Positions 1 through 58,631 of a stretch of DNA of 64,000 nt are shown in pieces (the first letter of the stretch is position 1; every line of letters starts with the position of its first letter). The notes below the pieces were generated by a model. That model saw nothing but the letters and a program-made list of their open reading frames with translations, ran no database searches and was not told where the DNA came from. A program made the translations under genes and the position numbers. Origin of the DNA: an uncultured Candidatus Micrarchaeota archaeon (GTDB taxonomy: Archaea; Micrarchaeota; Micrarchaeia; Anstonellales; Bilamarchaeaceae); NCBI GenBank assembly GCA_963714085.1, contig OY970229.1, positions 100,849 through 164,848 on the forward strand, in the 5' to 3' direction.

Positions 1-2510
1 TGTAGGTGGTGGAGATTATTACAGAACCGAATGGACTGATTGGTGCGAGTCCTGTGATGGTGCCGTTAAGGGATTGCCCTTGTGCGACGGAGGATGGTGA
101 GAGGGTGAGCGGAGCTATGATAGGATTCACTGTCACGTTGAATGACGCATTGGCTGTGTTACCGTAGGGGTCCGTAGCGCTGCAGTTGACCGGGGTGGTC
201 CCTATCGGGAACATTGAGCCGGATGGAGGCACGCATGAGACGTTGATAGATACGTTGTACTCGTCCTTTGCCGTTGGAGCGTATGTCTCGATTGTACCGT
301 TTGAGGTCGCTGTTGTTACGTTTATGTTGGAGATGCCGCTGATCGTTGGCGGGGTCGTGCCTGGGTTCTCTGTCACCCTGAAGGATGCATTGGCCGTATT
401 GCCGTAGATGTCCGTCGCATTGCAGTTGACCGTGGTGTTACCTATCGGGAACAATGAACCGGATACTGGGGTGCATAAGACCGGTACTGATACGTTGTAC
501 TCGTCCTTTGCCGTCGGGCTGTAGGTCACGTTGTTCGTCAGGTTGGTTGCGGTATTAGTTATATTGGAGATCCCTGAGATGGTCGGCGGGGTCGTGCCTG
601 GGTTCTCTGTCACCCTGAAGGATGCATTGGCCGTATTGCCGTAGATGTCCGTCGCATTGCAGTTGACCGTGGTGTTACCTATCGGGAACAATGAACCGGA
701 TACTGGGGTGCATAAGACCGGTACTGATACGTTGTACTCGTCCTTTGCCGTCGGGCTGTAGGTCACGTTGTTCGTCAGATTGGTTGCTGTCTGGGTGATG
801 TTGGAGATGCCGCTGATCGTTGGCGGGGTCGTGCCTGGATTCTCTGTCACTCTGAAGGATGCATTGGCCGTATTGCCGTAGATGTCCGTCGCATTGCAGT
901 TGACCGTGGTGTTACCTATCGGGAACAATGAACCGGATACTGGGGTGCATAAGACCGGTACTGATACGTTGTACTCGTCCTTTGCCGTCGGGCTGTAGGT
1001 CTCGGTGGAGCCGGTGTAATTCGTTGCGGTGTCGTTTATGTTAGAGATCCCTGAGATAATCGGTGCCACTGTACCTGGGTTCTCAGTCACGTTGAATGAT
1101 TCATTGGCCTGGTTTCCGTAGATGTCGGTTGCGGTGCAGTTCACCGTGGTGTTTCCTATGGGGAACATCGAGCCTGACACCGGGTTGCATATCACAGGCA
1201 CCGACACGTTGTACTCGTCCGTTGCAGTCGGGCTGTAGGTCACGTTGTTCGTCAGGTTGGTCGCGGTCTGGGTGATGTTGGAGATGCCGCTGATCGTTGG
1301 CGGGGTCGTGCCTGGGTTCTCTGTCACCCTGAAGGATGCATTGGCCGTATTGCCGTAGATGTCCGTCGCATTGCAGTTGACCGTGGTGTTTCCTATGGGG
1401 AACATCGAGCCTGACACCGGGTTGCATATCACAGGCACCGACACGTTGTACTCGTCCGTTGCAGTCGGGCTGTAGGTCACGTTGTTCGTCAGGTTGGTTG
1501 CTGTCTGGGTGATGTTGGAGATGCCGCTGATTGTTGGCGGGGTCGTGCCTGGATTCTCTGTCACTCTGAAGGATGCATTGGCCGTATTGCCGTAGATGTC
1601 CGTCGCATTGCAGTTGACCGTGGTGTTACCTATCGGGAACAATGAACCGGATACTGGGGTGCATAAGACCGGTACTGATACGTTGTACTCGTCCTTTGCC
1701 GTCGGGCTGTAGGTCTCGGTGGAGCCGGTGTAATTCGTTGCGGTGTCGTTTATGTTAGAGATCCCTGAGAAGGTCGGCGGGGTGGTGCCCGGGTTCTCAG
1801 TCACGTTGAATGATTCATTGGCCTGGTTTCCGTAGATGTCGGTTGCGGTGCAGTTCACCGTGGTGTTTCCTATGGGGAACATCGAGCCTGACACCGGGTT
1901 GCATATCACAGGCACTGAGACATTGTATTCATCCTTTGCAGTCGGGCTGTAGGTCTCGGTGGAGCCGGTGTAATTCGTTGCGGTGTCGTTTATGTTAGAG
2001 ATCCCTGAGATAATCGGTGCCACTGTACCTGGGTTCTCAGTCACGTTGAATGATTCATTGGCCTGGTTTCCGTAGATGTCGGTTGCGGTGCAGTTCACCG
2101 TGGTGTTTCCTATGGGGAACATAGAGCCTGACACCGGGTTGCATATCACAGGCACCGACACGTTGTACTCGTCCGTTGCAGTCGGGCTGTAGGTCTCGGT
2201 GGAGCCGGTGTAATTCGTTGCGGTGTCGTTTATGTTAGAGATCCCTGAGATGGTCGGCGGGGTCGTGCCTGGATTCTCTGTCACCCTGAAGGATGCATTG
2301 GCCGTATTGCCGTAGATGTCCGTCGCATTGCAGTTGACCGTTGTGTTACCTATCGGGAACATCGAGCCTGACACCGGGTTGCATATCACAGGCACTGATA
2401 CGTTGTACTCGTCCTTTGCCGTCGGGCTGTAGGTCACGTTGTTCGTCAGGTTGGTTGCTGTCTGGGTGATGTTGGAGATGCCTGAGATTACTGGTGGAAT
2501 TGTGTCCACC
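1..2510 (-). repeat. About 10.5 tandem copies of a 240-bp coding repeat (two alternating subtypes, >90% nucleotide identity) encoding the HYR/Ig-like modules of the giant protein
   Basis: The marker string gggttctctgtcaccctgaaggatgcattggccgtattgccgtagatgtcc... (or the variant gggttctcagtcacgttgaatgattcattggcc...) recurs at about 360, 596, 836, 1075, 1313, 1552, 1791, 2033 and 2273. The period is 238-242 bp. Confidence 0.85.
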
Positions 2511-5500
2511 GTGAAGCTCCTTGTTTCTGAGAAGTTGGTTTCGTTTGCAAGGTCGGTGCAGTTTATGAACCAGTTGTGATAGCCGTCTGCGATGCCTAAA
2601 AGCGGGAAGTCGGTTGCCGTGCTGTTCTGGGTAGTCGCATTCGTCTGGTTCAGGTTCCCGTCCAGGTATAACGAGCAGCTCAGGGTTGGATAATAGTCGT
2701 CGCTCGCATTGAATGCGAAGTCGATCGAACCCGAGTTCGTGATATAGGCATCTGGCGGGAACATGAGGTTGATCGTCGGTATGGTTGTGACATTGTTTTG
2801 CAGTATACCATAGGTGCTTGACGGGATCAGGCCCGTGAAGCCGAGCGTGTCCGCGACGGTGTCGGGGGTGTTGTTCAGCCTGGTCCAGCCTGAGGCGTCG
2901 GACTCCCAGAGCTCGAATTTGGTGTCGTTGTATCCGCTAAGCTCGGAATCCTGCCAGCTCCAGGTAACGGAATCGATGGAAACGCCCGCGCTCTGGTTTT
3001 TTATGTCGACGAATTTGTTGAAACTGATGGGAGCGCTGGCAGGCAGCGCGGTGGAGTTCCTGCTCCAGTTTATCGTGTAGGACTCCCCGCCTGCCGCGAG
3101 GGAATCGTTTATTGATAGCGAGGTGTTGGCCATGGAGCCGGACGGGTCCAGGAAGGTCGTGTTTGCCATGTTGTAGGTGACGCCGTTGTTGCTGTAGGCA
3201 TAGAAGTCGTAGTCGTTCCGGAAGAGCGTGGTGTTCCAGAACTGGTTCCCGGCCGAGCCGCCGAACTGGCTTATTATCGCCATGCCATATGCGGGATTGC
3301 CTGGAGAACCGGTATTGTTGTACGCGCTGTTCCCGATGAACGTATTGCCGTTGGCGTCGAAAAGCCGGAAGCCGTACTGCGTGTTGTTGTACGCGTTGTT
3401 GTAGAGGTAGGTGTCATTGGTGCAGCTGATGGCGAAGCCGTACAGCGTGTTGTTGTACGCGTTGTTCCCGGTGAAGGTGTTGTTCTCGCATGAGATGAGA
3501 TGGAAGCCCTCGCTGCCGCCGGAGACGTTGTTCCCGCTGAAGGAGTTGTTGTTCGCGAGCCCGCCCAGGTAGAAGCCGTAGTCCGCGTTCCCCAAGACGA
3601 CGTTGTCCGTGAACGTGTTGTCGGAGGCGCCGGATTCGATGCGGAATCCGGCATAGGAATCGTTATACACCGTGTTGCCGCTGAAGATGCTGGCCGAAGC
3701 GCCAGAGGCGTAGAAGCCGTTGAAGCACTGGGATACGGAATTGTTGGAATAGACGTTTCCGGTCCCGAGCGAGGCGATGCAGGTATCGGTGTCGTTGTAC
3801 ACGCTATTGTTGGAGATGTCGCCTCCTGAGAGGGAACCCGTGTAAATGCCGTAGTAATAGCCGCTGATTCCTGCGCAGTTCTCCACCGTGACGTTGGTGA
3901 GCGAGCCGTTGATGGCTATGCCGAAGGTCGTCCCTGCGGTGCCGTTGTTGGCTATGCTGTAGCCGTTGCAGTCGAAGACCACGTCGGATGCGGCTATTTT
4001 CACGCAGACCGTGCCGCTCAGCTCCGGAGCGCCGTTCGGCGCCCCGGTGTAGTTCATGTCCTGGGTGTATGTTCCGCTCTCGTTGATGACCGGGCAGTTG
4101 ATGGTGCTGTTCCCGAATATGCCATAGTCGCTTCCAGGAGAGAGATCAGTCAAGGCTAAGGTATCCGAAGAGAGGTCGGGGGTGACGTTCAGCGGGGTCC
4201 AGCCGCTGGAGTTGTACACCCACAGCTGGAAAGTGCTCTGGTCGTATCCGTTGGCTTCCCCATCGGTCCAGCTCCAGACGATGCTGTCGATGGACACCGG
4301 GGGGCTTAACGCGGAGATGTTCACGAACGTCTGGGCGAAGGGCTGGTAGGGGGGCGCGGTCTCGTTGGCCGTCCAGTTTATGGCGTATTCCTCGCCGTTG
4401 TTGACGATGTCGTTGATGCTCAGGTTGGTGAAGTTCTCCATCGAGCCGGTCGGGTTGTCGAAGACGATGCCGGAGAGGTTGATCGTGATAGGGGGGCCGG
4501 AATAATCCGCCACGTCCAGGTCATAGCCGTTGTTGGACAGGTATTGGCCCGTCACAGAGGTCTGGTCGGAGCCCATGGACAAGCCGACATGTGAGTTGTT
4601 GGTAGCGCGGTTGTCATCCATGGAATTATTGGTCCCGGATATCGTGATGCCGGTGTGACCGTTGTTGTCGGCGCTGTTGTTGGACAGGCTGTTGTTGCCG
4701 CCATAGAGCCCGATGCCGTCCCATGCGTTGTTGTCAGCGCTGTTGCCGTACAGGGTGTTGTTGTCGCCACCGAGCCCGATGCCGTCATCCCCGTTGTTGT
4801 CGGCGCTGTTGTTGGACAGGGTGTTGTTGCCGCCACTGAGCCCGATGCCCTCGTAAGACTCGTTGTCGCAGCTGTTGTTCGTGATGTTGTTATTGGAACC
4901 TGTGATCTCAATTCCGAGGTTATTGCCGTCCAAGTCATTATTATATATGGCAGTATTGTCCGTTGGAGGAGAACTGGAGTGGATGCCACCATAACTGTTA
5001 TTGTTGACGCGATTGCCGGATATCGTCTCCTGGCTCGAATTATCGAGCGCGATGGCGTCTTCGTTGTTGTATATGCTGTTGTCATCAAGCGTATTCTGGT
5101 CCGATGAGGAATAGAGGGCGATGGCCGAGTAGCCGCCGTTGGTGAACGTGTTGTTGGCGATGGTATTGTTGCTCGAGGTATCGAGCACGAGGCCGATGTT
5201 GCTGTCGTTGCTCACGCTGTTGTTATACAAGGTATTGTTGTTGCTCCCGAAACCGAAGAAGATGCCGTAATCGTTGTTGTGGTCGATGCTATTGTCGTAT
5301 ATGACATTGTTGCTCGATGAATCGGTGTCGTTATTGTAACCGCCCAGGCCGATGCTGTAATCACTGTCGTAGTCGAGATGGTTGTCGTATATGCGGTTGT
5401 TGTTGGATTTGTTGAGGTATATGCCGTTCGCGTTCGAGAAGCTGTTGTTGGAGAAATCATTGCCATGCAGGGCGTTACTGTCCGATGAATCGAGCACGAT

Positions 5501-6715
5501 GCCGGCACCGCGGTTGTAGTACGCGTTGATGTTCGTGAATTCGCTGCCGTCGGACTGGTTGGCGTAGATGCCGTCTTCGTATCTGGATATCCAGGGGCAG
5601 TTCTCCACCGTGACGTCTGTGAGGGGCCCGACCAGCAGGATGCCGTAGGTGGGGCCGCCGGTGCCGCCATTGGTGATGCTGTGGCCGTTGCAGTTGTAGA
5701 CGACGTCGGAGGCCGTGATCTCCACGCAGGCCGAGCCGGCGAGCGGAGACGCATCGTTCGGTTCACCGACGTAGTCCATGCCCTGGGTATAGGTGCCGCC
5801 CGAGCTGATGACCGGGCAGCCAACGGAGATTATGCCGCCCTGGAGTATGCCGTACTCGCCCGCCGGAGTGAAGTTCGTCAAGGCCAAAGTGTGCGAAGAT
5901 GTGTCCGGGGTCTCGTTCACCACGTACCAATACCCTCCGTAGAGACCGTTCCAGAGGCTGAGGTTGCTCTCGTTGTATCCTAAGGCTTCCGTGGCGGTCC
6001 AGCTCCATACTGCGCTGTCGATCGTCAGCGGGGGGGAGGCGTACAAATCGATGCGCACGAACTTCTGGATGAAAGACTCGCGGGGAGTCGGGGTATCATT
6101 GGCCATCCAGCTGATGGAGAAGCCTCCGACGTCGTTCAAGGTGTCGTTGACGCTCAGATTCGTGTAGTTCTCCATGGTGCCTGAAGGATTATCGAAGATC
6201 ATGCCGGATAGGCTGACCGAGAACGGGTTGCCGATATCGTCATGGACTATCAGGTCGTTGGTGTTGTTGGAGAAGTACTGGCCCTGCACCACGGTCTGGT
6301 CGGAGTCCTGTATATACAATCCGGTATTGGAATTGTTCATTGCTGCGTCATTGATCAGGCTGATGATTGCTGACTGGTAGACGAAGATGCCATTGGAGTA
6401 GCCGGAAATCCCCGGGCAGTTCTGTATCGTGACGTTGCTGACCTCCGAGGGGACCGCGATGCCGTAGGTGGTGCCGCCCGTGCCGTCATTTATTATGTAG
6501 TGGCCGTCGCAGTCTAAGACGACGTCAGAAGCCAAGATCTTCACGCAGGCCAAGCCGCCATCGGGCATCTCTGAAGCGCTGTTGGGGGCTCCGGTCAGGT
6601 CCGCCGTCAGCGTGTAAGAGTCAGAGGCGCTTATCACCTGGCAGCTTCCGATTCCGGTCGGGTACGATACGCCCATCAGGAGCAGGAACACCACGAGGAC
6701 AAAAATGGATTTCAT
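1..6715 (-). CDS. Giant secreted surface/adhesin-like protein, partial (C-terminus beyond position 1). Domain order: signal peptide, three NosD-like right-handed beta-helix modules each followed by a WSW-containing beta domain, then at least 10 tandem 80-aa HYR/Ig-like repeats.
   Basis: My own translation of the minus strand gives an uninterrupted frame from ATG at 6715..6713 (MKSIFVLVVFLLLMGVSYPTGIGSCQ...) to position 1, more than 2,230 aa. The motif C[VT][KE]I.ASDVV.[DN]C[DN]G[HY]SI.N.GTGG.TYGI recurs three times. Stretches of NNS/NNT beta-helix rungs (NosD/pectin-lyase-like) follow. The repeat unit ...TVNCNATDIYGNTANASFRVTENPG... is HYR-like. N-x-S/T sequons are abundant. It is absent from the supplied ORF track only because no stop lies inside the window. 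A TATA-like ATTAATAAAG sits about 25-35 nt upstream. Confidence 0.8.
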   Translation of the reverse strand, partial: MKSIFVLVVFLLLMGVSYPTGIGSCQVISASDSYTLTADLTGAPNSASEMPDGGLACVKILASDVVLDCDGHYIINDGTGGTTYGIAVPSEVSNVTIQNCPGISGYSNGIFVYQSAIISLINDAAMNNSNTGLYIQDSDQTVVQGQYFSNNTNDLIVHDDIGNPFSVSLSGMIFDNPSGTMENYTNLSVNDTLNDVGGFSISWMANDTPTPRESFIQKFVRIDLYASPPLTIDSAVWSWTATEALGYNESNLSLWNGLYGGYWYVVNETPDTSSHTLALTNFTPAGEYGILQGGIISVGCPVISSGGTYTQGMDYVGEPNDASPLAGSACVEITASDVVYNCNGHSITNGGTGGPTYGILLVGPLTDVTVENCPWISRYEDGIYANQSDGSEFTNINAYYNRGAGIVLDSSDSNALHGNDFSNNSFSNANGIYLNKSNNNRIYDNHLDYDSDYSIGLGGYNNDTDSSSNNVIYDNSIDHNNDYGIFFGFGSNNNTLYNNSVSNDSNIGLVLDTSSNNTIANNTFTNGGYSAIALYSSSDQNTLDDNSIYNNEDAIALDNSSQETISGNRVNNNSYGGIHSSSPPTDNTAIYNNDLDGNNLGIEITGSNNNITNNSCDNESYEGIGLSGGNNTLSNNSADNNGDDGIGLGGDNNTLYGNSADNNAWDGIGLYGGNNSLSNNSADNNGHTGITISGTNNSMDDNRATNNSHVGLSMGSDQTSVTGQYLSNNGYDLDVADYSGPPITINLSGIVFDNPTGSMENFTNLSINDIVNNGEEYAINWTANETAPPYQPFAQTFVNISALSPPVSIDSIVWSWTDGEANGYDQSTFQLWVYNSSGWTPLNVTPDLSSDTLALTDLSPGSDYGIFGNSTINCPVINESGTYTQDMNYTGAPNGAPELSGTVCVKIAASDVVFDCNGYSIANNGTAGTTFGIAINGSLTNVTVENCAGISGYYYGIYTGSLSGGDISNNSVYNDTDTCIASLGTGNVYSNNSVSQCFNGFYASGASASIFSGNTVYNDSYAGFRIESGASDNTFTDNVVLGNADYGFYLGGLANNNSFSGNNVSGGSEGFHLISCENNTFTGNNAYNNTLYGFAISCTNDTYLYNNAYNNTQYGFRLFDANGNTFIGNSAYNNTGSPGNPAYGMAIISQFGGSAGNQFWNTTLFRNDYDFYAYSNNGVTYNMANTTFLDPSGSMANTSLSINDSLAAGGESYTINWSRNSTALPASAPISFNKFVDIKNQSAGVSIDSVTWSWQDSELSGYNDTKFELWESDASGWTRLNNTPDTVADTLGFTGLIPSSTYGILQNNVTTIPTINLMFPPDAYITNSGSIDFAFNASDDYYPTLSCSLYLDGNLNQTNATTQNSTATDFPLLGIADGYHNWFINCTDLANETNFSETRSFTVDTIPPVISGISNITQTATNLTNNVTYSPTAKDEYNVSVPVICNPVSGSMFPIGNTTVNCNATDIYGNTANASFRVTENPGTTPPTISGISNINDTATNYTGSTETYSPTATDEYNVSVPVICNPVSGSMFPIGNTTVNCTATDIYGNQANESFNVTENPGTVAPIISGISNINDTATNYTGSTETYSPTAKDEYNVSVPVICNPVSGSMFPIGNTTVNCTATDIYGNQANESFNVTENPGTTPPTFSGISNINDTATNYTGSTETYSPTAKDEYNVSVPVLCTPVSGSLFPIGNTTVNCNATDIYGNTANASFRVTENPGTTPPTISGISNITQTATNLTNNVTYSPTATDEYNVSVPVICNPVSGSMFPIGNTTVNCNATDIYGNTANASFRVTENPGTTPPTISGISNITQTATNLTNNVTYSPTATDEYNVSVPVICNPVSGSMFPIGNTTVNCTATDIYGNQANESFNVTENPGTVAPIISGISNINDTATNYTGSTETYSPTAKDEYNVSVPVLCTPVSGSLFPIGNTTVNCNATDIYGNTANASFRVTENPGTTPPTISGISNITQTATNLTNNVTYSPTAKDEYNVSVPVLCTPVSGSLFPIGNTTVNCNATDIYGNTANASFRVTENPGTTPPTISGISNITNTATNLTNNVTYSPTAKDEYNVSVPVLCTPVSGSLFPIGNTTVNCNATDIYGNTANASFRVTENPGTTPPTISGISNINVTTATSNGTIETYAPTAKDEYNVSINVSCVPPSGSMFPIGTTPVNCSATDPYGNTANASFNVTVNPIIAPLTLSPSSVAQGQSLNGTITGLAPISPFGSVIISTTY

Positions 6716-6780
6716 ATTGCCCCTATCGGAATTAACTTTATTAATGTTGCTCATCGAGCACCCGGCATCGCGACGCAGCC

Positions 6781-7497
6781 CTAGAGCTTCAAATCCTTGG
6801 CCAATCGCACGACCTGGAAGAGCTCGTTGAGCTTCTCGTAGTCGGATATCCTGCCGATGTCGAACCATACGTCGTCGAAGACGTAGGGCGCGATGCGCTC
6901 GCCCTTCTCGAGCATGCGGGGGAAGACGCTCTTCGCGAAGTCCTCCTTCTCGCGGATGTAGCCGAAGACCTCGGGCTCGAACACGTACATGGCCACGTTG
7001 TAGTTCTCCTGCAGCAGGGGCTTCTCCTTGAACGATTTTATGCCGTGAGCGTCGACCTCCGCGACCCCGTACTCTATTGGGAGCATGTGCTTGAGCAGCG
7101 CGATGGTCGCGACCGCCTTCTCTTTCTTATGGTGCTCCACCATGGCCTTGAGGTCTATGTTCGTGATATGGTCGCCCATGACCACCAGGAAGGTCTCGCT
7201 GATCTTCCCCCTGCATGGCAGTATGGAGCCCGCGGTGCTGAGCGGCTCCTTCTCCACCGAGTACTCTATCTTGACGCCGGAGTCCTTCCCGTCCCCGAAA
7301 TAACCCTCTATCTGCTCGTGCTTGTAGCCGACCGTGAGCACCAGGTCCTTGAAGCCGTTCCTCTTCAGGTTCTCTATCACGTACCAGAGTATCGGCTTCC
7401 CCCCGACCATGAGCATCGGTTTCGGCGTGTAATATGTGTACGGCTTGAGCCGGGTGCCTTCCCCACCGCAGAGTACGAATGCCTTCATTTCAATCAC
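6781..7497 (-). CDS. Sugar-phosphate nucleotidyltransferase (NTP-transferase family; glucose-1-P thymidylyl/uridylyl or mannose-1-P guanylyltransferase-like)
   Basis: The N-terminus is LCGGEGTRLKPYT, a G-G-x-G-T-R-L nucleotide-binding signature. The 238-aa length fits the family. It lies immediately upstream of the giant glycoprotein gene and on the same strand. Confidence 0.8.
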   Translation of the reverse strand: MIEMKAFVLCGGEGTRLKPYTYYTPKPMLMVGGKPILWYVIENLKRNGFKDLVLTVGYKHEQIEGYFGDGKDSGVKIEYSVEKEPLSTAGSILPCRGKISETFLVVMGDHITNIDLKAMVEHHKKEKAVATIALLKHMLPIEYGVAEVDAHGIKSFKEKPLLQENYNVAMYVFEPEVFGYIREKEDFAKSVFPRMLEKGERIAPYVFDDVWFDIGRISDYEKLNELFQVVRLAKDLKL

Positions 7498-10315: not shown

Positions 10316-11158
10316 TCAATAGAAGCGTATGTCGGTCAAAAGTGTATTGCCCATCTGCCCGAGGGATACGGTCACCCTGCCATCGCCAAGGCCGAACTCC
10401 CTCTGTTCGCCGACATGCAGGCCGAAATGCCTCGCGTAGGGGACGTCCGGGGTCGGGTGCCCGAAACAAAGGCAGAAACCCCTGTCTTCCTTATGCGCTT
10501 GGGGATCCACGTAGAACAGTATGTATCCCTGGCCCGCATTCGTGACCGCTCTGTTCTCGATGCGGAACATGGCGCCGCCCTGCATGATGAAGAACCCGTG
10601 GCCAAGGTCGCCAAGCCTGACATTGGAGGGGCTTTCCACGAGCAGCTGGTTTGAAAGGACGGCGCTGCGCCTTGCCGCCGCATCGTCCGTTTTCACCGGC
10701 GTCGCTTCGCGGGACGAGAATCTAGGGATCACGGTTGCTGCCGGTTCCCCCACCTCGGCCTCCATGAGGCCGTGTTTTCCGGAAACCTTTATCAGCAGCC
10801 CCTCGTCGGAAACAAACGAGAAACTCCCCCCGCCGAGGCTCACTCCGCCGCACTCCTGGGTGGTGCCTGAGGCAGTATGCTGGATCCTGAACTGCGGATG
10901 GCCATGCAAGCTATTGAGGACGATGGAGCATGAGGGGATTATCCCCATGACATCCCCTTCCCGGGAGGCCGACGTGAACAGGCTGACCTTGCGTCCGACC
11001 AGATGCGCCGCATCCTCAGTGGCGGCGGGGACCGGGGCGGCCTGCGGATCGCTGCGCCCGAATGTCCTCACGCTGGATCGGAGTGCGGCTCCAAGTCTGG
11101 CGACGGCGTCGCCATCACTGTGCGGGGTCGGGACGGTTTTCTGGGTTGGGTTGACCAT
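10316..11158 (-). CDS. Hypothetical protein (weak metallophosphoesterase-like motif order; function not assigned)
   Basis: 280-aa ORF with balanced composition. The opposite-strand ORF 10521..11219 is S/P-rich junk. The motifs LHGH, GDLGHG and GHPT are only suggestive. Confidence 0.45.
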   Translation of the reverse strand: MVNPTQKTVPTPHSDGDAVARLGAALRSSVRTFGRSDPQAAPVPAATEDAAHLVGRKVSLFTSASREGDVMGIIPSCSIVLNSLHGHPQFRIQHTASGTTQECGGVSLGGGSFSFVSDEGLLIKVSGKHGLMEAEVGEPAATVIPRFSSREATPVKTDDAAARRSAVLSNQLLVESPSNVRLGDLGHGFFIMQGGAMFRIENRAVTNAGQGYILFYVDPQAHKEDRGFCLCFGHPTPDVPYARHFGLHVGEQREFGLGDGRVTVSLGQMGNTLLTDIRFY

Positions 11159-11254
11159 AGATCATCGTATTGATTGTGTTCCAAAGTATATAAAAAAGTA
11201 TCTTTTGTGGGAATCGTGACTTCGAAATATAAATGTTACTACTTATGATATATC

Positions 11255-12298
11255 TTGATTACTATGCGGAGAAACACACCTGTTACAATATCCAAGACAT
11301 CCATGATAGCCTTGTCCGTCGCCGCGCTCACGGTTTTCGGGGCCTGGAAGGCCGGCGCCGATCCCGATCATGCCAAGAAGCCGGACCCGGTCCAGAAAGC
11401 GGCGGATGTCCCTGCCGCAACGCTCACCCCGGAGCACTGCACCGTCCATCCCGAGCTCGAGCTCTACGCGGGCAAGCGGAAGCTGGACCCGAAGCTCGTG
11501 CGCGCCGTGGCCATAGCGGAGAGCAACCTGGACGCATGCGCGGCCGCACGCGCAGGAAGCAGCTGGGGCCCGAACTGCTATTCGCTCGGCTATGATTATG
11601 TGCCTGACCCGGAGTCCAGATGCAACAACGCCTCCGAGAGCCCGGGACAGGCCGGCTCGCCCCTCTGGCGCTACTGCGGCCTGGGGCTCATGCAGACCCT
11701 GGAGCCCCCTTACACTTTCTGGCCCGCACTAGTTCCGGACGGGAAATACGGCCCGTACAGCTCCGGCGGCCAGAAGCAGCTCTTCCAGGAGGCGCAGCTC
11801 AGAGGCAGGATGAGCTTCCTGCTGGACGCGAAGGCGTGCTCGCCAGCGTTCAATCCGTTCAATCCGGAGCACTCCGCCTGCCTGGGGACCCACAAGCTCG
11901 CGGCAGCCATGGACGGGGCGGGGAAGCTGGCTGAGTCCAGCACGCAGGAGCTCGGGAATCCTGGCCTGGCGGCAACGAAAGCGATAACGGCGTATCTCGC
12001 GCTGCACTACTACTACGGCGACGGCGGCTATGCCCAGGGCTGGATAGCCGAGTTCGGAAGGCGCCGCGCGCAGACAAAGGAGTTCTGCGACAGGAAAGCT
12101 AGGAAGAAGGACCCGGTATGCGTGGAGCGGAAAATCTCCGCGCGCCCGGAATGCTACGGCATGGACGATTTCATCGCGTTCGTGCGGGAGTGCAGGTTCC
12201 GGGACGGCCCGGGGCAGAGCGAAGCGCCGTTCTACGGGGACTACGGCTCTAAGGTCCTCTCCGTGGCCAGGGGATTGGAGAACACCTGCGGGAAATAG
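11255..12298 (+). CDS. Secreted lysozyme-like / lytic transglycosylase (SLT family 1)-domain protein
   Basis: N-terminal hydrophobic anchor or signal (MIALSVAALTVFGAW). AIAESNLDACA carries the catalytic Glu-Ser. GLGLMQT is the GLMQ motif. AITAYLAL resembles the AYNAG region. The protein is Cys-rich. Confidence 0.55.
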   Translation: MITMRRNTPVTISKTSMIALSVAALTVFGAWKAGADPDHAKKPDPVQKAADVPAATLTPEHCTVHPELELYAGKRKLDPKLVRAVAIAESNLDACAAARAGSSWGPNCYSLGYDYVPDPESRCNNASESPGQAGSPLWRYCGLGLMQTLEPPYTFWPALVPDGKYGPYSSGGQKQLFQEAQLRGRMSFLLDAKACSPAFNPFNPEHSACLGTHKLAAAMDGAGKLAESSTQELGNPGLAATKAITAYLALHYYYGDGGYAQGWIAEFGRRRAQTKEFCDRKARKKDPVCVERKISARPECYGMDDFIAFVRECRFRDGPGQSEAPFYGDYGSKVLSVARGLENTCGK

Positions 12299-12396: not shown

Positions 12397-14220
12397 ATGG
12401 GATCCAAACTCAGAAGTGATGCTAGAGGCAACGACACCAGGCCTAGCGCCAGCCCGGACATCTCAGCTGCGATAAGGGCATCAAAAAGAGGACCTGATAG
12501 GAACAGCGCCGCATTCAATGACGATTCCAGATTGGTAGTCAACGCAGGCAAGATAACGACCTTGATCACGGACCTCGACCGTACACTCTGGGAGGGTGTT
12601 CTCGCAGAGAAGCAGAAGGTGAGGGTAAACGACGAGTACTACGACTTTTTGAGATCGTTGCATAGAAAAGGGATAACTGTATTTGCCGTATCGAAGAACG
12701 ACGAAGAGGAGGTAAATGCGGCATTTGACAGGCTGGCGATAGACAAGGGATTGTTCACTGCGGTCATCGCGAACTGGGATCCGAAATATTTAACGATAGA
12801 GAGGCTTGTCCAGTGCACCGGATTAAGGCCTGAAACCGTCGTATTGGTAGATGATAATCCATTGGAAAGGACCGAGGTGAAGGCCCGGACTCCGCAGATA
12901 TACTGCATTGATAGTTCCAATTGGGATGTGTTACGCGGAGTCCCGTATATCATGCGGCGCAGGAACCAGGCATCGAGCGAGATACGGTCCAGGGCCAACC
13001 GCTACAAAACCGCCATCTATGCCTCGGATTCGAGACTCCGGGCTGCTGATGACGCCGAATTTTACCGGGGATTGAAAAGAGAGATCAGCATCGGCCAGAT
13101 AGGCGTGGATGATATCGGCCGTTATACCCGCCTGCTGGTGGAGACGCATCGCATCAACTTCAATCCAGGGAAATTCGCTGAGTACGGCGCAGCGCTGGAA
13201 TATCTGCACGAAAGGTTGAACGCGGGGGACAGGTTATTCGCGATTTCCACCAAAGAGCGCGGCATGTCATTGGGGCTCACCGGGGCCCTGGTCGTGCATC
13301 ACGAAAACGGCCGGGCCCGGATTACCGACGGGACCTTTTCCTGCGGCATAATCGGCAGGGATTTCGAGCAGAGGTCCATCCTTGCGTTGATTGAGATCCT
13401 GAAACGGGAGGCCGTAGCCACGCTCGAGGTCTGCGTGACCCCCACAGGGACGAACAAGCGGATGAAAGACATACTGGTCAGCCTTGGTTTTTCGGAAGAA
13501 AGACAAGAAGATGGCAAAATCATATACTCGATGGATATCACGCACTACGCACCCAAAGAGACTTATGGCTGGATCGCATTGAGCACCGAAGCTCCGGAAT
13601 TGGACTATGAGGGTCATCCTGCGGTAATCGGATTTTTCGATGCGCACGTCAAGCCGCTGATCCGGGAAAGATCCAACCTGGTGAACATCGGTTCAAGCCG
13701 CGGGGAGGTCCTGGGTTTCCTTCAAGATGACGTCCGGGAGGAGTTTGACCGGTTTTTAGCTGCCAGAAAGGCGAATTATCTGAAGATAGACAAAATCGCA
13801 TACCCGGGCGAGGATAACATTGTCGCTGACGCAGAGGATCTCAAGGGAATCGTACCCAACAGAAGCCAGGACCTGGTGATGGCAGTCGAATTGCTCGAGC
13901 ACACGGAGCATTTCTGGCTGGTGATAAACGAGATGAACAGGATTGCCAAACAGGACGGCCTCATATTCCTGACCGTGCCCTCGTTCAACTATCCGAAACA
14001 TGAATACCCTATTGATCTCTGGCGTATCGGCCCCGAAACAATCTCCAAATTTTTCCCTCCCGCATATTTCGAGACCTTGCGTCTTGAGACCGAAGGGATG
14101 GAAAAGAGCCCGAGGAGAACGATGATCCTCGTGAGAAAATTAAAGGACGGGTCCCCGGAGCAAGGCATGCCTGAAGGGGGAAGAACAAACTGGAAAACGG
14201 GATTGACTCTTTTCCCCTGA
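12397..14220 (+). CDS. FkbH-like multidomain protein: HAD-IIIC phosphatase-like N-domain, GNAT-like middle domain, and a C-terminal SAM-methyltransferase-like domain
   Basis: LITDLDRTLW is HAD motif I (DxDxT). VSKND and VDDNP give HAD motifs II and III. LEVCVTPTGTNKRMKDILVSLGF is GNAT-like. VMAVELLEHTEHFWLVINEMNRIAKQDGLIFLTVP is a class-I MTase post-II/III-like region. Confidence 0.55.
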   Translation: MGSKLRSDARGNDTRPSASPDISAAIRASKRGPDRNSAAFNDDSRLVVNAGKITTLITDLDRTLWEGVLAEKQKVRVNDEYYDFLRSLHRKGITVFAVSKNDEEEVNAAFDRLAIDKGLFTAVIANWDPKYLTIERLVQCTGLRPETVVLVDDNPLERTEVKARTPQIYCIDSSNWDVLRGVPYIMRRRNQASSEIRSRANRYKTAIYASDSRLRAADDAEFYRGLKREISIGQIGVDDIGRYTRLLVETHRINFNPGKFAEYGAALEYLHERLNAGDRLFAISTKERGMSLGLTGALVVHHENGRARITDGTFSCGIIGRDFEQRSILALIEILKREAVATLEVCVTPTGTNKRMKDILVSLGFSEERQEDGKIIYSMDITHYAPKETYGWIALSTEAPELDYEGHPAVIGFFDAHVKPLIRERSNLVNIGSSRGEVLGFLQDDVREEFDRFLAARKANYLKIDKIAYPGEDNIVADAEDLKGIVPNRSQDLVMAVELLEHTEHFWLVINEMNRIAKQDGLIFLTVPSFNYPKHEYPIDLWRIGPETISKFFPPAYFETLRLETEGMEKSPRRTMILVRKLKDGSPEQGMPEGGRTNWKTGLTLFP

Positions 14221-14389: not shown

Positions 14390-15100
14390 ATGGCCGGAAT
14401 AACGCTCATCCTCGCTTTCATCGCGGGCGTCGTCTCGTTCCTCAGCCCGTGCGTCCTGCCGCTCATACCGGCATACCTCACCTTCCTGGCAGGCACTACG
14501 GTGCAGAAGACGTATTCCCCGAAGATACGGACCGAGATATTCCTGAGCAGCGTCTCGTTCGTGCTCGGCTTCTCGGTCTTGTTCTCCATCCTGGGCATAT
14601 TGCTCCAGAGCGTCCTGTCCAAGTTCGCGTACTCCGTGCTCACCTACCTGAGCTACATCGGCGGCGCCGTGATAATCTTCTTCGGCCTGATGATGATAGG
14701 CTTGATAGAGATACCCGCGCTGTCCATCGAGCACAAGGTCAAGGTGGAGCGGACGAACATATCTTACATCACGTCATTCATCTTCGGGGCCGCATTCGCG
14801 GTGGGCTGGACCCCGTGCGTGGGCGCGGTGCTGGGCAGCATCCTCACGCTGGCGATAACCCAGCCAGGGTCCTCGTTCCCGCTCATGCTCAGCTACTCCG
14901 TAGGGTTGGGCGTTCCGTTCCTGCTGGTCGGGCTTTTCGTGTCCCAGGCGTCCAGGGCCATACAGTACATCGGCCCGTACCTGAAGTGGCTCAACCTGAT
15001 CTTCGGGATCGTACTCATAATACTCGGGATCCTCGTCTTCACCCAGACCCTGCCCCTGGTGGCTAACATAGGGTTCCTCAACGACTGGCTCCTCAAGTGA
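14390..15100 (+). CDS. ccdA: Cytochrome c-type biogenesis / thiol-disulfide transmembrane electron transporter CcdA (DsbD family)
   Basis: LSPCVLPLIPAYL and the WTPCVGAVLG signature. Six predicted TM helices. A leaderless-type TATA (GCTTATAAAA) lies about 28 nt upstream. Confidence 0.9.
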   Translation: MAGITLILAFIAGVVSFLSPCVLPLIPAYLTFLAGTTVQKTYSPKIRTEIFLSSVSFVLGFSVLFSILGILLQSVLSKFAYSVLTYLSYIGGAVIIFFGLMMIGLIEIPALSIEHKVKVERTNISYITSFIFGAAFAVGWTPCVGAVLGSILTLAITQPGSSFPLMLSYSVGLGVPFLLVGLFVSQASRAIQYIGPYLKWLNLIFGIVLIILGILVFTQTLPLVANIGFLNDWLLK

Positions 15101-15104
15101 TTCT

Positions 15105-16229
15105 ATGAAAGCCAACGACCCGGTGACAATAGTAATAGCGATCCTGATCATCATCGCCGCCATACTGTTCATCAGGTGGACCGGCGCAGGCGCGGTGGTG
15201 ACCACGCCGGTGGTGAACACGGTGGCTAACGGCATCGGCAACGCCCTGAACGTGACTTCCAACCAAAGCGCGGTCGGCGAGGGCTCCCTGTTCCAGAAGG
15301 CGCCGGAGCTCACGGGGATATCCGGCTACATAAACGCTCCGAGCAATCTCACCATCGCGAGCCTCGGGGGCGACGTGGTGCTCGTGGATTTCTGGACCTA
15401 CTCGTGCATAAACTGCATACGCACCCTCCCCTACCTGGAGGCGTGGGAGCAGAAGTACGGCCCCATGGGCTTCGTCATAATAGGCGTGCAGTCCCCTGAA
15501 TTCGAGTTCGAGAAGGATTTCAACAACGTCCAGGCGGCGGTCACGAAGTACAACATCACCTATCCGGTCGTGCTGGACAACGACCACGCGACCTGGAACG
15601 CGTACCAGAACCTCTACTGGCCCGAGGATTACCTGGTGGACGCCGACGGCTACATAAGATACACCCACATCGGCGAGGGCGACTATGACACCACGGAGTC
15701 GGAGATCCAGCAGCTGCTCATGGAGAGGAACCAGAACGCGTCGCCGGGCGGGATCGTGGCGAGCAACATCAGCGCGAACTACGACCTCTCTAAAATCGGC
15801 ACCCCGGAGATATATCTGGGCTATTCCTTCGCAAGGCAGCCCATCGGCAACCCGCAGGGCTTCGTGCGGGACCAGGTCGTGGACTATTCCATCCCCCAGG
15901 CCATGCAGACCAATGTCGTCTATTTCTCCGGGTCCTGGCTGAACAACCCGGACAACATGGAGCTCTCTTCGGACACCGGCAAGATAATCCTGACATACTA
16001 CGCGAAGAACGTGAACATCGTGGCCGGAGGGAACGGCACACTCAACCTCCTGCTGGACGACGCCGCGCCGTCCCCTGACCAGTACGGCCTGGACGATGCG
16101 AATGGGACCGTGACCGTGAACCAGGAGCGGCTCTACAGTTTGATAGACGACACGGGCTACAACCAGAGGACGCTGGAGATAGATGCCACTGGGAAAGGAT
16201 TCAGGATTTACACATTCACGTTCGGCTAG
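15105..16229 (+). CDS. Membrane-anchored extracytoplasmic thioredoxin-fold thiol:disulfide oxidoreductase (TlpA/ResA-like) with a C-terminal beta-rich domain
   Basis: N-terminal TM helix. VVLVDFWTYSCINCIRTLPYL contains the CxxC (C-I-N-C) redox motif of redoxins. It starts 5 nt after ccdA. Confidence 0.8.
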   Translation: MKANDPVTIVIAILIIIAAILFIRWTGAGAVVTTPVVNTVANGIGNALNVTSNQSAVGEGSLFQKAPELTGISGYINAPSNLTIASLGGDVVLVDFWTYSCINCIRTLPYLEAWEQKYGPMGFVIIGVQSPEFEFEKDFNNVQAAVTKYNITYPVVLDNDHATWNAYQNLYWPEDYLVDADGYIRYTHIGEGDYDTTESEIQQLLMERNQNASPGGIVASNISANYDLSKIGTPEIYLGYSFARQPIGNPQGFVRDQVVDYSIPQAMQTNVVYFSGSWLNNPDNMELSSDTGKIILTYYAKNVNIVAGGNGTLNLLLDDAAPSPDQYGLDDANGTVTVNQERLYSLIDDTGYNQRTLEIDATGKGFRIYTFTFG

Positions 16230-16265
16230 GCCGCGGATCGGGCCCGTCTTTTTGCCTTCGATGCG

Positions 16266-17189
16266 TCAAACCGACAGCCTATCCAGCGTATCGCAGATTA
16301 TCTCGAGCGACTCCTTGAAGGTTTCTTCGTTCAGGATGGAACCGGGCAGTATGTAGGCCGCCCGTTCGTTGGTTATATTGAATAACGCCCATTGTCCGTC
16401 AAAACGCGTGCTTCTCCAAAGAATCGAGTACATCCCGAGCTTGTCGATGCGCTGGTAGATGTCCTCCAGGCCGGCGGCCACCATCCGCTCTTTGCTGTCG
16501 AAGATCATCTTCGGATCCCTTCCCGATCTGTTCGGGGTCTTGATGCTCAATCCGACGCTTTGGCCCAAGCCGCTCGGGGTGAACAGCTGGATATTGAAAT
16601 CCCGTCCCCTGTAAGCGCCATCCCATCCGGTCGCGACCTTGGCAAAACCGTTTTTTTGCAGGACCGGTTCTATCGAAGACGCCGCGGTATCTTTTGATTT
16701 TTTAGCCTCGGCGCTGAGAACGAAGAATAGCAAGACCGCTATCGGGATTATGAATCCGATGAGGATGTAACCGGATTGGGTGGTGAAGAGGGTGGAAGCG
16801 AGCCGTGATTGGTCCGGTGCATCGGGATTCACGAGGATTCCGATTTCGGACTCTCCGGTGTTCGCATTCGTTGTGCCTCCGACCTCGCCTACGAACTGGA
16901 TGGTGGACGGTGCGACATCGCTTGAGCAGCAATGGCCCGAATACTGGTTTTCGTTATAGGGATAAGCGTAGGTCATATTGACTATGTGCGAGCAGGATCC
17001 GTGCGTATCGCAGTTTGAAATCGCGTTTTCATCGAAGTGGGTGACCGTCGCATTGACTGGTCTCCAGGTGCTGAGGATGACATAGTCGGAATACAGCGAC
17101 TGTACGCCGATGAAGATGAAGCAGAGGCCTATGAGCACCGCGAGACAGATTACGTACTTTGCGTAGTACGGCATTGCCATGGCCAGCAT
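16266..17189 (-). CDS. Hypothetical membrane protein (two TM segments, Cys/His-rich extracytoplasmic loop)
   Basis: 307-aa ORF with hydrophobic N-terminal and central helices. No recognisable catalytic motif. Confidence 0.5.
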   Translation of the reverse strand: MLAMAMPYYAKYVICLAVLIGLCFIFIGVQSLYSDYVILSTWRPVNATVTHFDENAISNCDTHGSCSHIVNMTYAYPYNENQYSGHCCSSDVAPSTIQFVGEVGGTTNANTGESEIGILVNPDAPDQSRLASTLFTTQSGYILIGFIIPIAVLLFFVLSAEAKKSKDTAASSIEPVLQKNGFAKVATGWDGAYRGRDFNIQLFTPSGLGQSVGLSIKTPNRSGRDPKMIFDSKERMVAAGLEDIYQRIDKLGMYSILWRSTRFDGQWALFNITNERAAYILPGSILNEETFKESLEIICDTLDRLSV

Positions 17190-17251
17190 AGGGACTGGTT
17201 ATTATTTTAAGGTTTGGCACGCCACCGGGATTGAGCCGGCCATGCCAAGCT

Positions 17252-18178
17252 CTACCGCTTCTTCTGCAGCCACTCGTACGCGCAATACGAGGCCAGCACC
17301 GCCTCCCCTGCGCCCACTATCGCCTGCTTGAACACCGTGTCCGCGACGTCGCCGCACGCGTACACGCCAGGGACGCTCGTCTCCGCGCGCCTGTTGATCA
17401 TGATCTCTCCTTTTTCGTTGAGCTTGGCACCCAGCTGCTTCGCGAGCTCGGAGTTCGGAGTCCTCCCGATCTCCACGAACACGCCGTCCACCTTGAAGTC
17501 ATGAGAGCCGTTGTACGGCTTGTCCAGGACGAGATTCTCGAGCCGCCCCTTCCCAGCGAACTCCTTCACGTTCGTCTTGTTCATTATCTCTATCTTGCTG
17601 TTCGCCATCGCGCGCTCGAGGTTGACCGGCTCCGCGCGCACCTTCTCGCCCCTGTAGATGATGTAGACCTTCTTCGCCCATTGCGTGAGCAATAAAGCCT
17701 CCTTGACCGCGGAGTCGCTCCCGCCTATCACCGCTATGCTCTTGTCCCTGTAGAAGACCCCGTCGCAGAGCGCGCAGGTGTGCACGCCCTTGTTCTCCAG
17801 CTCGGTCTCGCCCGGGATGCCCATCTTGCGCGTGGCGCTGCCTGTCGCGAGTATGAGCGCCCTGGAGGAGTATGTTTTGCCCTCGGCGTCCGTGACCGTG
17901 AACCCGTCCTTGGTCTTCTCGGCCTTGACCGCCTTCGCATCCACGATCTCCGGCTTGTACTCGTTGGCGTGCTGCTCTATGTTATTGGCCAGGTCCATGC
18001 CGTTGATGGACTTTATGCCGGGCCAGTTCGTGACGTGGTTGGTGAGGATTATCGTGCCGCCACGGCTCTCCGCTATGACGAGCGTGCTCAGCTTCAGCCT
18101 GCCGCAGTACATGGCCGCGGAGAAACCCGCGACCCCGCCCCCGATGATGGCGATGTCGTATTCCATGCGCTCACGCAA
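17252..18178 (-). CDS. trxB: Thioredoxin-disulfide reductase (NADPH/FAD)
   Basis: DIAIIGGGVAGFSAA is the FAD GxGxxG motif. CALCDG is the redox-active CxxC. AVIGGSDSAVKEAL is the NADPH site. An alternative start is the Met at 18166. Confidence 0.9.
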   Translation of the reverse strand: MRERMEYDIAIIGGGVAGFSAAMYCGRLKLSTLVIAESRGGTIILTNHVTNWPGIKSINGMDLANNIEQHANEYKPEIVDAKAVKAEKTKDGFTVTDAEGKTYSSRALILATGSATRKMGIPGETELENKGVHTCALCDGVFYRDKSIAVIGGSDSAVKEALLLTQWAKKVYIIYRGEKVRAEPVNLERAMANSKIEIMNKTNVKEFAGKGRLENLVLDKPYNGSHDFKVDGVFVEIGRTPNSELAKQLGAKLNEKGEIMINRRAETSVPGVYACGDVADTVFKQAIVGAGEAVLASYCAYEWLQKKR

Positions 18179-18434
18179 GGCCGAGCGCCTTCTTTATCGC
18201 CGGCTGGTTGAAGCCGATTATCACGTCCTTGTCTATCAGGATGACCGGGATGCCGGTCTGGCCGGAGACCTGCTGGACCTCGGCCGCGTACTTCTGGTTC
18301 ACGCCCACGTCCCTCATCTCGAACTTTATCTTGTTCGCGTTGAGGAAATCCATGGCCTTGTGGCACCAGGGGCACCATTCCGCCGAATAGACGATCACCT
18401 TTTTCTCCGCAGCTTTTTTTTCCGCCATAAACAC
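18171..18434 (-). CDS. Glutaredoxin/NrdH-like small redoxin
   Basis: 87 aa with VIVYSAEWCPWCHKA (CPWC active site) and a thioredoxin-fold C-terminus GIPVILID. It overlaps the trxB start by 8 nt. Confidence 0.85.
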   Translation of the reverse strand: MFMAEKKAAEKKVIVYSAEWCPWCHKAMDFLNANKIKFEMRDVGVNQKYAAEVQQVSGQTGIPVILIDKDVIIGFNQPAIKKALGLA

Positions 18435-51798: not shown

Positions 51799-53133
51799 AT
51801 GCCAGAGACAGCAACCGCCAGGGTTATTTTTGCGCCTAAGGCCAGCCGCGCTGTCCCGCCCAGGCGCTGCAAGCCGCATTTCTTCGCATGCCAGACAGAG
51901 GGCATACGCAAGCAGCCAAGGGGCGCCGGCAAAACCCGCAGGAAAGCCCTTCTGAACAGCGAGCTGGCAGGCCTCTGGGAGTTCGCTAAGAAGAGAAAGG
52001 CGACCATCTCGAAGAAAGAGGAGGCGGAGATGTTCGGGATATACCTGCGCGTGGTCAGGCGCATGCAGGAGCTGAAGCATCTGCGGGAAAGGTGGAACGG
52101 ACCCGTGAAACAGGAGCTCGTGCGCCTTTCCGAGGCGAAGGAGCTTGCGGAGAGGGTGGTCGCGAGCAGAGGGGACATGAGATACCTCAGGGAACTCGCT
52201 GCAGAGAAGAGGCGGTCGCTCGAGAAAGAGGAGGAATACGCCGTCTTCCGGATTTATAGGCGGGTGCTCCCCCGCATGATGAACCTCGGGAAGGGAGGCA
52301 TTGCAGCGAACGCGGAACACGGACTCGTGGCTCAGGAGATGGAGCGGCTTTCCGAGGCGAAAAGGCTTGCCGAGACCATAATCATCCAGACCATGGAAAA
52401 GCAGTTCTGGATGACAGCCAAATACGTGATCCACCCCTCGGTCATAGAAAAATCAGACCTCGTTCAGGAGGCCTGCATGGCTGTAGTAAGAAGAGCTATG
52501 CGCACCTTTGACCCTGACCAGGACTGCAGAATCTCCACGTACTGCCAGTTAGGGATAACGCGGGCCATGAAACGCGCGGTTCAGAATCAGGGGAAGACCA
52601 TCAGGATCCCGTGCAATACGTACACCATAAGCGCCAAGGTCAACAGAGCTTACATGGAATGCCGCAAATCTGGCTACGAGCCGACCGCGCAGGAGATAGC
52701 TGATCTTGCCGGACTCGACCTGAAGAAGGTCGTGAGATGCCTCGAAATGCCGGATACGCTCAGCATGGACGTTAGGCCAGAGGACAGGCTTGCATTAATC
52801 GATACGATTCCGGACAATGGCATGGATCCGCTGGAGACGCTTGTCAACGCTGAGGTGGGAAGCGTGGTGGAGACGCTCCTTGGGAAACTGAGGCCCGACC
52901 AGCGCAGGATATTGTGCATGAGGCAGGGCCTGGGCTGCAAAGAGCACACGTTGAAGGAGATCGCAGAAGTAGATGGATGCAGCGGCGAGAACATAAGGCA
53001 GAAGCTGTTCAAGATAGCGAGAAGGATACGCAATGCGAACAAGGCGCTGCTGCGCGAGTACCAGGGCTATGGCCCCGATGACGAAGCGCCATCCCATGAA
53101 CCCGGAGAGCAGGCCAGCGCCGGGCAGCGGTAG
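51799..53133 (+). CDS. Bacterial-type sigma-70 family protein (regions 2, 3 and 4 present) with a novel N-terminal extension of about 200 aa containing two internal repeats
   Basis: DLVQEACMAVVRRAMRTFDPDQDCRISTYCQLGITRAMKRAVQNQGKTIRIP is region 2.1-2.4 including the RTIRIP box. SGYEPTAQEIADLAGLDLKKV is region 3.0. LRPDQRRILCMRQGLGCKEHTLKEIAEVDGCSGENIRQKLFKIARRIR is region 4. The conserved WW of region 2.3 is replaced (YCQLGITR). Confidence 0.8.
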   Translation: MPETATARVIFAPKASRAVPPRRCKPHFFACQTEGIRKQPRGAGKTRRKALLNSELAGLWEFAKKRKATISKKEEAEMFGIYLRVVRRMQELKHLRERWNGPVKQELVRLSEAKELAERVVASRGDMRYLRELAAEKRRSLEKEEEYAVFRIYRRVLPRMMNLGKGGIAANAEHGLVAQEMERLSEAKRLAETIIIQTMEKQFWMTAKYVIHPSVIEKSDLVQEACMAVVRRAMRTFDPDQDCRISTYCQLGITRAMKRAVQNQGKTIRIPCNTYTISAKVNRAYMECRKSGYEPTAQEIADLAGLDLKKVVRCLEMPDTLSMDVRPEDRLALIDTIPDNGMDPLETLVNAEVGSVVETLLGKLRPDQRRILCMRQGLGCKEHTLKEIAEVDGCSGENIRQKLFKIARRIRNANKALLREYQGYGPDDEAPSHEPGEQASAGQR

Positions 53134-58413: not shown

Positions 58414-58483
58414 AATAATAAAAATCTACCCTTATAACAAAGACTGAAACAGCAGTCCACAGCGAGTGATGGGTTTTATTCAG

Positions 58484-58555: not shown

Positions 58556-58631
58556 TACTCCAGAACCAAACATGGGATGTTTTTGTTGGACGGCAGAGAG
58601 AAATTAAATATCTTTAGCAAGTAAGGAAAGT

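Follow-up and report, generated by a model that had tools for sequence, protein, structure and literature searches.

The window analysed here is a stretch of 64,000 nucleotides (64 kb) on contig OY970229.1 (assembly GCA_963714085.1, positions 100,849 to 164,848 of the forward strand) from an uncultured Candidatus Micrarchaeota archaeon, a member of the DPANN archaea. It carries an open reading frame (ORF) at 11255–12298 on the forward strand whose product has a predicted lysozyme-like fold and belongs to a family that has so far been almost wholly unannotated. The ORF is a genuine gene: it is uninterrupted, and a second, independent assembly with this sequence carries the gene call too (locus L001). 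Since the database copy of the protein (P0001, 100% identical) has 344 amino acids, as has the L001 gene call, the ATG at 11264 is taken as the likely start; residue numbers are counted from the TTG at 11255, which gives a form of 347 residues. A TATA-like box upstream would imply a near-leaderless transcript. The gene and its parts are laid out as follows:

11225–11234, + strand: putative AT-rich TATA-like box, AAATATAAAT, about 30–39 nucleotides 5' of the ATG at 11264
11255–12298, + strand: the flagged ORF, 347 amino acids from the TTG, stop included
11264–12298, + strand: likelier coding sequence, ATG start, 344 amino acids
11264–11359, + strand: predicted Sec signal peptide, residues 4–35, with a basic n-region, a hydrophobic core and an A-x-A site, KAGA/D (the slash marks the cleavage point)
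11360–11431, + strand: linker rich in Lys, Pro and Ala, residues 36–59, with low model confidence
11432–12295, + strand: lysozyme-like (GH23/SLT-fold) domain with family-specific additions, residues 60–347, holding all 12 cysteines
11519–11524, + strand: E89-S90, motif I of the lytic transglycosylases (LTs), with the predicted catalytic Glu (general acid) and Ser, at the C-terminal end of model helix 79–90 and aligned to the ES of Slt70, MltC, EtgA and goose lysozyme
11540–11665, + strand: insertion 1, residues 96–137, between motifs I and II, with conserved C108, D118-P119 and C123; it exceeds the corresponding part of E. coli Slt70 by about 30 residues (extended hhalign alignment)
11678–11725, + strand: motif II, G142-LGLMQ-147, then the family signature EPPYTFWP (residues 142–157), assigned by conservation and alignment
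11849–11899, + strand: F-N-P-F-N...C-L-G-T-x-K-L, residues 199–215, putative counterpart of the SLT 'dP..N...G..yL' helix motif
11990–12019, + strand: A-Y-L-A-L-H-Y-Y-Y-G, residues 246–255, a putative variant of LT motif III (AYNxG), assigned by conservation
12020–12295, + strand: C-terminal Cys-rich helical extension, residues 256–347 (C278, C289, C300, C313, C345), without detectable counterpart in the aligned E. coli LT domains

The hydrophobic core of the N-terminus, MIALSVAALTVFGAW, spans the 15 residues M17–W31 (nucleotides 11303–11347, by translation), and the A-x-A/D site that follows is kept in all three orthologues (KAGA/D in P0001, RAEA/D in P0002 and KADA/D in P0003). An earlier note on this DNA, made from the letters alone, had called this stretch an anchor. 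The hydrophobic stretch is there, but with its basic residues, core and A-x-A/D site the N-terminus looks more like a Sec signal peptide that is cleaved off than like a lasting membrane anchor. Twelve cysteines lie in the predicted mature protein (62, 95, 108, 123, 141, 195, 209, 278, 289, 300, 313 and 345); 11 of these occur in 88% or more of the relatives, and C141 in 53/78. Such a content would fit an extracellular, disulfide-bonded protein, and with the signal-peptide-like N-terminus it favours the secretion that the same note had proposed, export and disulfides both being predicted from sequence.

Taken singly, the protein is a borderline case. The Pfam SLT profile (PF01464), a check that the earlier note had proposed, scores it at 16.8 bits, below the gathering threshold of 21.3 (E 0.0052, residues 72–102 only), and the window protein drew no useful match from NCBIfam, PHROGs or a single-sequence phmmer search of the PDB (one spurious PDB match, E 0.48). 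We therefore collected the wider family for profile comparison. A word-indexed protein search gave three close relatives, and an exhaustive HMMER search with the profile of these over 1.84 billion representatives gave 129 proteins, of which 95 reached E ≤ 1e-10; a word-indexed search with a domain profile added 15 further proteins, all unnamed or 'hypothetical', one with PF01464. SLT is the sole Pfam family that recurs among 68 relatives, 16/68 matching it at E ≤ 0.01 with 8.4e-8 as the best value; at least two relatives, P0010 with 24.8 bits and P0013 with 21.4 bits, exceed its gathering score. Compared with all PDB sequences, a 78-member profile gave five matches, namely EtgA (two entries), MltC (two entries) and a goose-type lysozyme, all of them on the ES motif. 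Finally, hhalign of the family domain to the aligned catalytic domains of Slt70, MltE, MltC and MltD from E. coli returned a probability of 87% (P 3.7e-6) and put E89 on the catalytic Glu of Slt70.

The motifs themselves were assessed in the 78-sequence family alignment, to which all conservation counts out of 78 refer, and their coordinates were confirmed by translation. In motif I, E89 is kept in 75/78 and S90 in 68/78. Motif II is similarly constant (G144 77/78, M146 65/78, Q147 69/78) and aligns to 'SGLMQI' of Slt70 when the hhalign alignment is relaxed to an extended one, whose confidence is negligible past motif II. In that extension FNPFN..G..L, with N200, P201 and F202 each kept in at least 75/78, pairs at low confidence with LDPETN..G..L of Slt70 ('LLDPETNINIGTSYL'), and the variant A246-Y-x-A-x-x-x-Y253-x-G255 falls, at zero confidence, near 'AAYNAGPG'; within the family, Y247 is kept in 60/78 (F in 16 more), Y253 in 73/78 and G255 in 76/78. 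The ES, GLGLMQ and AY motifs on which the note had built are thus all in place, and conservation this strong across 78 sequences is not chance. That the motifs are a coincidence in a protein of some other kind might be argued from the sub-threshold Pfam score and from the lack of a single-sequence PDB or NCBIfam match, but this idea is refuted by the structure matches given next, by the hhalign result on Slt70 and by the recurrence of SLT in 16/68 relatives, and we accord it almost no weight.

An AlphaFold2 model made with 78 homologues reached a predicted local distance difference test score (pLDDT) of 83 and a predicted template modelling score (pTM) of 0.81, as against pLDDT 34 for a model from 3 sequences. 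Disorder is limited to the signal peptide and linker (pLDDT below 50 over residues 1–47), and the model has the alpha+beta fold of the lysozymes. Structure comparison gave these scores:

P. aeruginosa Slt: 11.7
E. coli Slt70: 11.4
LtgA: 11.0
MltC: 10.7 (2.8 Å over 145 residues)
MltF: 10.5
goose-type lysozyme: 10.3 (2.6 Å over 145 residues)
MltE: 10.0 (2.7 Å over 142 residues)

The top Foldseek matches, in the PDB and among viral models, are likewise nearly all LTs. Their E-values are weak (0.003–0.04 at best) because only about 145 of the roughly 290 domain residues make up the canonical core, the rest being the family-specific insertion 1 (96–137), insertion 2 (158–198) and Cys-rich extension (256–347). 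The lysozyme-like identity proposed in the note is thereby borne out by the SLT matches of the family, the alignment to Slt70 and the structure matches, and a candidate catalytic Glu is present; its assignment to E89 follows from the profile alignments and from its predicted position at the end of helix 79–90.

We read the window protein, with a probability of about 0.6, as an exported, disulfide-stabilised enzyme of this Micrarchaeota archaeon that cleaves glycan strands with the fold shared by GH23, the family-1 LTs and goose lysozyme. It would leave the cell by the Sec route, with the signal peptide probably cleaved after A35. The domain of about 290 residues would then bind a polymer of beta-1,4-linked N-acetyl-hexosamine where a cleft separates its helical lobe from a small beta-sheet, and E89, at the end of helix 79–90, would protonate the glycosidic oxygen; cleavage could follow the LT route, with a 1,6-anhydro product, or be a hydrolysis. 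In action, the enzyme may open up or strip off the cell wall of a bacterium, whether partner or prey, or free amino sugars and peptides from wall debris, which would feed an organism of reduced metabolism.

Several results weigh against this reading. Besides the SLT score below threshold, the empty single-sequence searches and the weak Foldseek E-values, residue 338 (nucleotides 12266–12268) is Ala in the window protein and in P0002, where 74/78 members have Tyr; the 64-kb window showed no genes for peptidoglycan recycling or for amino sugars; and the cultured Micrarchaeota have hosts among the wall-less Thermoplasmatales (PMC5498576), so that a murein target is not obvious for the phylum.

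The Ala at this family-conserved tyrosine position also bears on whether the protein cleaves anything. It could be a lectin or adhesin that merely attaches to glycans through a dead lysozyme fold, and the family does yield members of that sort: in five short forms of other Micrarchaeota (P0011, P0015, P0036, L007 7512–8933 and L016 7578–8918) Gln replaces the catalytic Glu (QS for ES) and all other motifs are kept, which suggests catalytically dead, binding-only derivatives, Glu to Gln being the classic inactivating change, as in the crystallised MltE-E64Q and Slt-E503Q. In the window protein and two orthologues, however, E89, S90, GLGLMQ, FNPFN and Y253-x-G255 are all intact, and we consider a purely binding role improbable for it.

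The family to which the protein belongs can be written as ES...GLMQ-x-x-EPPYTFWP...FNPFN...Y-x-G plus about 12 conserved cysteines, a definition that the window protein matches throughout. It is almost wholly unannotated and, in the loci retrieved, restricted to Micrarchaeota: a pattern scan that took a single genome for each GTDB species found relatives at 21 loci, 21/21 of them in Micrarchaeota/Micrarchaeia metagenome-assembled genomes (MAGs), so specific was EPPYTFWP to Micrarchaeota relatives; and the precomputed Pfam field is empty ('-') for 16/17 distinct listed family proteins, with PF01464 in the remaining one.

Two architectures were observed. (i) The long form, of about 800–1,000 amino acids, has a Cys-rich domain of about 480 amino acids followed by the C-terminal lysozyme-like domain. 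(ii) The short form, of about 330–470 amino acids, has a signal peptide or a low-complexity linker followed by the lysozyme-like domain. In 16 loci the long form lies immediately 3', on the same strand, of a gene for a protein of about 1,600–1,700 amino acids that has a signal peptide, an ectodomain of about 220 amino acids, one transmembrane segment and a long helical remainder rich in Lys and Glu; the pair, found for example at L003 1634–9014 and L028 2670–11048, is always beside topoisomerase VI A/B, a KH protein and an AAA_16 ATPase. Searches of Pfam and of the PDB sequences gave nothing meaningful for this partner or for the N-terminal domain of the long form. The identical long-form neighbourhood surrounds the very divergent member P0112 (E 9e-8), and the long form therefore looks ancient in these lineages. 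One MAG (DeMMO3_13) carries long-form genes in tandem (L004 6531–9089 and 9076–11712).

A tblastn search of the 64-kb window found neither a second copy of the gene nor the N-terminal domain of the long form. At 55% identity, the window short form most resembles the bin-0946 long form (L003), from the sister genome; identity to all other lineages is 35–43%, and short forms elsewhere group with the long forms of their own lineages (52–55%). This closeness to the long form of the same lineage suggests that short forms arose by repeated duplication of the catalytic domain, in which case the window gene would be a short paralogue derived from the C-terminal catalytic domain of its own lineage's long form of about 850 amino acids.

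The gene is native and its position is conserved. The window is archaeal and carries ABCE1, HMG-CoA reductase, an HTH_10 regulator and a GT4 family glycosyltransferase, and the nearest locus, L002 (bin-0946, a lake sediment MAG), is syntenic, with the shared order of a 238-residue ORF, DUF92, ABCE1, the lysozyme-like gene and TrxB. Between the two loci the flanking proteins are 85–92% identical and the lysozyme-like protein is only 58% identical: it changes far more quickly than the housekeeping genes next to it, as is usual for surface or interaction proteins. With the 21/21 family loci, these flanks also confirm the archaeal origin that the earlier note had read from the sequence. That note had further suggested that the gene might be horizontally acquired cargo. 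In its strongest form this would make it an endolysin or SLT gene recently taken up from bacteria or phages and lacking an adapted archaeal role; SLT domains are indeed overwhelmingly bacterial or phage-borne, and the region accepts insertions, three nearby genes having lower G+C at third codon positions (GC3) and being absent from the sister genome. We think it very unlikely all the same, because the orthologue in L002 occupies the same ABCE1-to-TrxB interval and because the GC3 of the gene, 0.82, is near the 0.86–0.89 of the neighbouring core genes. The lineage-wide family contradicts it too: most of the 129 proteins share the long (about 800–900 amino acids) or short (about 350–450 amino acids) architecture, all the taxonomically labelled family loci are from Micrarchaeota, the window protein has no PHROGs match, and the bacterial and phage LTs that match it in structure share about 20% identity with it or less. 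The genes around it are:

10316–11158, − strand: protein of 280 amino acids without a domain; absent from L002, GC3 within 0.65–0.75
12397–14220, + strand: fusion of FkbH/HAD-IIIC and a methyltransferase; absent from L002, GC3 within 0.65–0.75
14390–15100: DsbD_TM/CcdA-like gene; absent from L002, native GC3
15105–16229: membrane-anchored, extracytoplasmic thioredoxin-like protein; absent from L002, native GC3
16266–17189, − strand: membrane protein of 307 amino acids; absent from L002, GC3 within 0.65–0.75
17252–18178, − strand: thioredoxin reductase TrxB, which directly abuts the lysozyme-like gene in L002
18171–18434, − strand: glutaredoxin-like ORF with CPWC

By their GC3 (0.65–0.75 vs about 0.87) and their absence from L002, the genes at 10316–11158, 12397–14220 and 16266–17189 appear to have been inserted recently on either side of the lysozyme-like gene. 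The first was considered as an inhibitor or immunity partner and rejected, having no domain or signal, lower GC3 and no counterpart in the sister genome; a functional link to the FkbH-like/methyltransferase gene was set aside on the same grounds of GC3 and absence. The thiol-disulfide genes (14390–18434), less than 6 kb downstream, form a set compatible with the needs of a secreted protein with 12 cysteines, a circumstantial point.

Elsewhere in the window, a giant ORF (<1–6868, − strand, at least 2,289 amino acids) runs off the window start; its N-terminus is a signal or transmembrane segment, and it has right-handed beta-helix/NosD repeats, near-identical tandem repeats of about 77 amino acids that hold at least 10 HYR domains, and many N-x-S/T sites. 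It lies 4.4 kb away from the lysozyme-like gene and probably encodes a surface adhesin. Two tandem paralogous ORFs (51799–53133 and 53235–54578, both + strand) carry bacterial sigma-70 domains behind extensions of about 200 amino acids, with regions 2, 3 and 4 in the former and region 4 alone detected in the latter; sigma-70 genes have been described in other DPANN, mainly Woesearchaeota (PMC8204110), and the present case is in Micrarchaeota. A protein of 534 amino acids (44005–45609, + strand) has several ankyrin repeats, uncommon in archaea. A tRNA-Thr (GGT) gene at 58483–58556 is followed by the stretch of lowest GC in the window (0.52; region 58483–61685), in which three ORFs (59454–60011, 60017–61057 and 61134–61685) have similar N-termini, the middle one with HEAT repeats; the region is possibly an integrated element or a paralogue cluster.

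We next consider which glycan the enzyme would cleave. The best structural matches are all murein enzymes, which makes bacterial peptidoglycan the likeliest substrate, at even odds or somewhat better in our analysis; the gene content of the window lends metabolic support neither to this substrate nor to its rivals. Pseudomurein, which the earlier note had also offered, has beta-1,3 glycan links and is resistant to lysozyme, and we therefore rank it least likely of the substrates offered there. A more serious competitor keeps the same fold and chemistry and changes the target to a chitin-like or other beta-1,4 N-acetyl-hexosamine glycan. Candidates would be the cell's own envelope or S-layer glycans, remodelled for growth, division or pilus passage, a surface glycan of an archaeal host, or environmental chitin. 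Inheritance in the family is vertical, and across very divergent Micrarchaeota the long form keeps a core-genome place, paired with the membrane protein of about 1,600–1,700 amino acids; this location and pairing suggest a role in the cell's own biology over that of an accessory weapon. The hosts without walls that are known for Micrarchaeota (PMC5498576) point the same way, as does the fact that about half of the domain is family-specific, so that the cleft could be reshaped. Against this, our analysis found no evidence of a glycan wall polymer in Micrarchaeota, and the set ES / GLMQ / AYxxG is that of the family-1 LTs. A non-murein substrate is a minority possibility, well behind peptidoglycan. 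Somewhat more doubtful still is the specific proposal that the whole family is ancient, vertically inherited Micrarchaeota cell biology and not an anti-bacterial tool; in that case the long form with its conserved membrane partner, and the repeatedly duplicated short forms, some of them catalytically dead, would act on a non-murein glycan of the archaeon's own envelope or of an archaeal host's surface.

Compared with known enzymes, the cleaving protein that we favour is nearest to the family-1 LTs of Gram-negative bacteria (E. coli Slt70, MltC, MltE/EmtA and MltD; P. aeruginosa Slt and MltF), with which it shares the E-S catalytic Glu at a helix end, G-L-M-Q and, as predicted here, export; the downstream P-x-N...G...L helix and an aromatic-x-G variant of motif III may correspond as well, at low alignment confidence. 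It departs from them in being about 20% or less identical and below the Pfam SLT cut-off, in its insertions of about 42 and 41 residues flanking motif II and its Cys-rich C-terminal extension of 92 residues, which leave only about half of the domain canonical, and in having 12 cysteines and no superhelical, lipobox, LysM or ABC-type accessory modules. The archaeon that encodes it is, moreover, not known to have murein. Goose-type lysozyme (a GH23 hydrolase; PDB 4g9s, 3gxk) uses D86 and D97 as auxiliary Asp residues, and these are without a clearly conserved counterpart in the Micrarchaeota family. Candidates for a second acid are E150, three residues past Q147 (46/78), and D118, inside insertion 1 (70/78); neither is universally conserved. 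The GH23 chitinase of Ralstonia sp. A-471 (PDB 3w6b) was a weaker structural match than the LTs.

Similar genes in some DPANN had been mentioned in the earlier note, correctly: GH23/SLT proteins of Woesearchaeota and Pacearchaeota have been read as binding or degrading bacterial peptidoglycan (PMC8204110, PMC9723730), and one Micrarchaeota MAG has a GH23 listed as extracellular (PMC8561730). SLT/GH23 domains in DPANN have been reported since 2013, also by Castelle et al. 2015, going by the works cited in PMC8204110. The giant extracellular LT proteins of Woese- and Pacearchaeota (fam00969) reach about 3,000 amino acids, and their SLT is found by standard annotation; the window protein (344–347 amino acids) and its long paralogues (about 800–1,000 amino acids), mostly invisible to Pfam, fall outside that class. 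Compared by description with the reported DPANN SLT proteins, the Micrarchaeota family stands apart by its signature (EPPYTFWP, FNPFN, 12 Cys) and by its architectures. SLT domains in DPANN are thus already known; what is new is a Micrarchaeota family with its own signature, architectures and long-form partner gene.

Surveys of carbohydrate-active enzymes (CAZymes) or of 'predatory potential' in DPANN under-count this family, whose members are filed as 'hypothetical protein' and lie below the Pfam cut-off; the EPPYTFWP and FNPFN signatures make it easy to find. An exported enzyme that keeps the catalytic Glu of murein cleavers would be a rare concrete handle on what Micrarchaeota touch or eat. 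If it cleaves peptidoglycan, it points to bacterial partners or to feeding on necromass; if it cleaves another glycan, it points to a so far unrecognised component of an archaeal envelope. Should the role prove endogenous and the substrate not murein, the family would represent an archaeal use of the GH23 fold, and a new module of the cell surface or of host contact.

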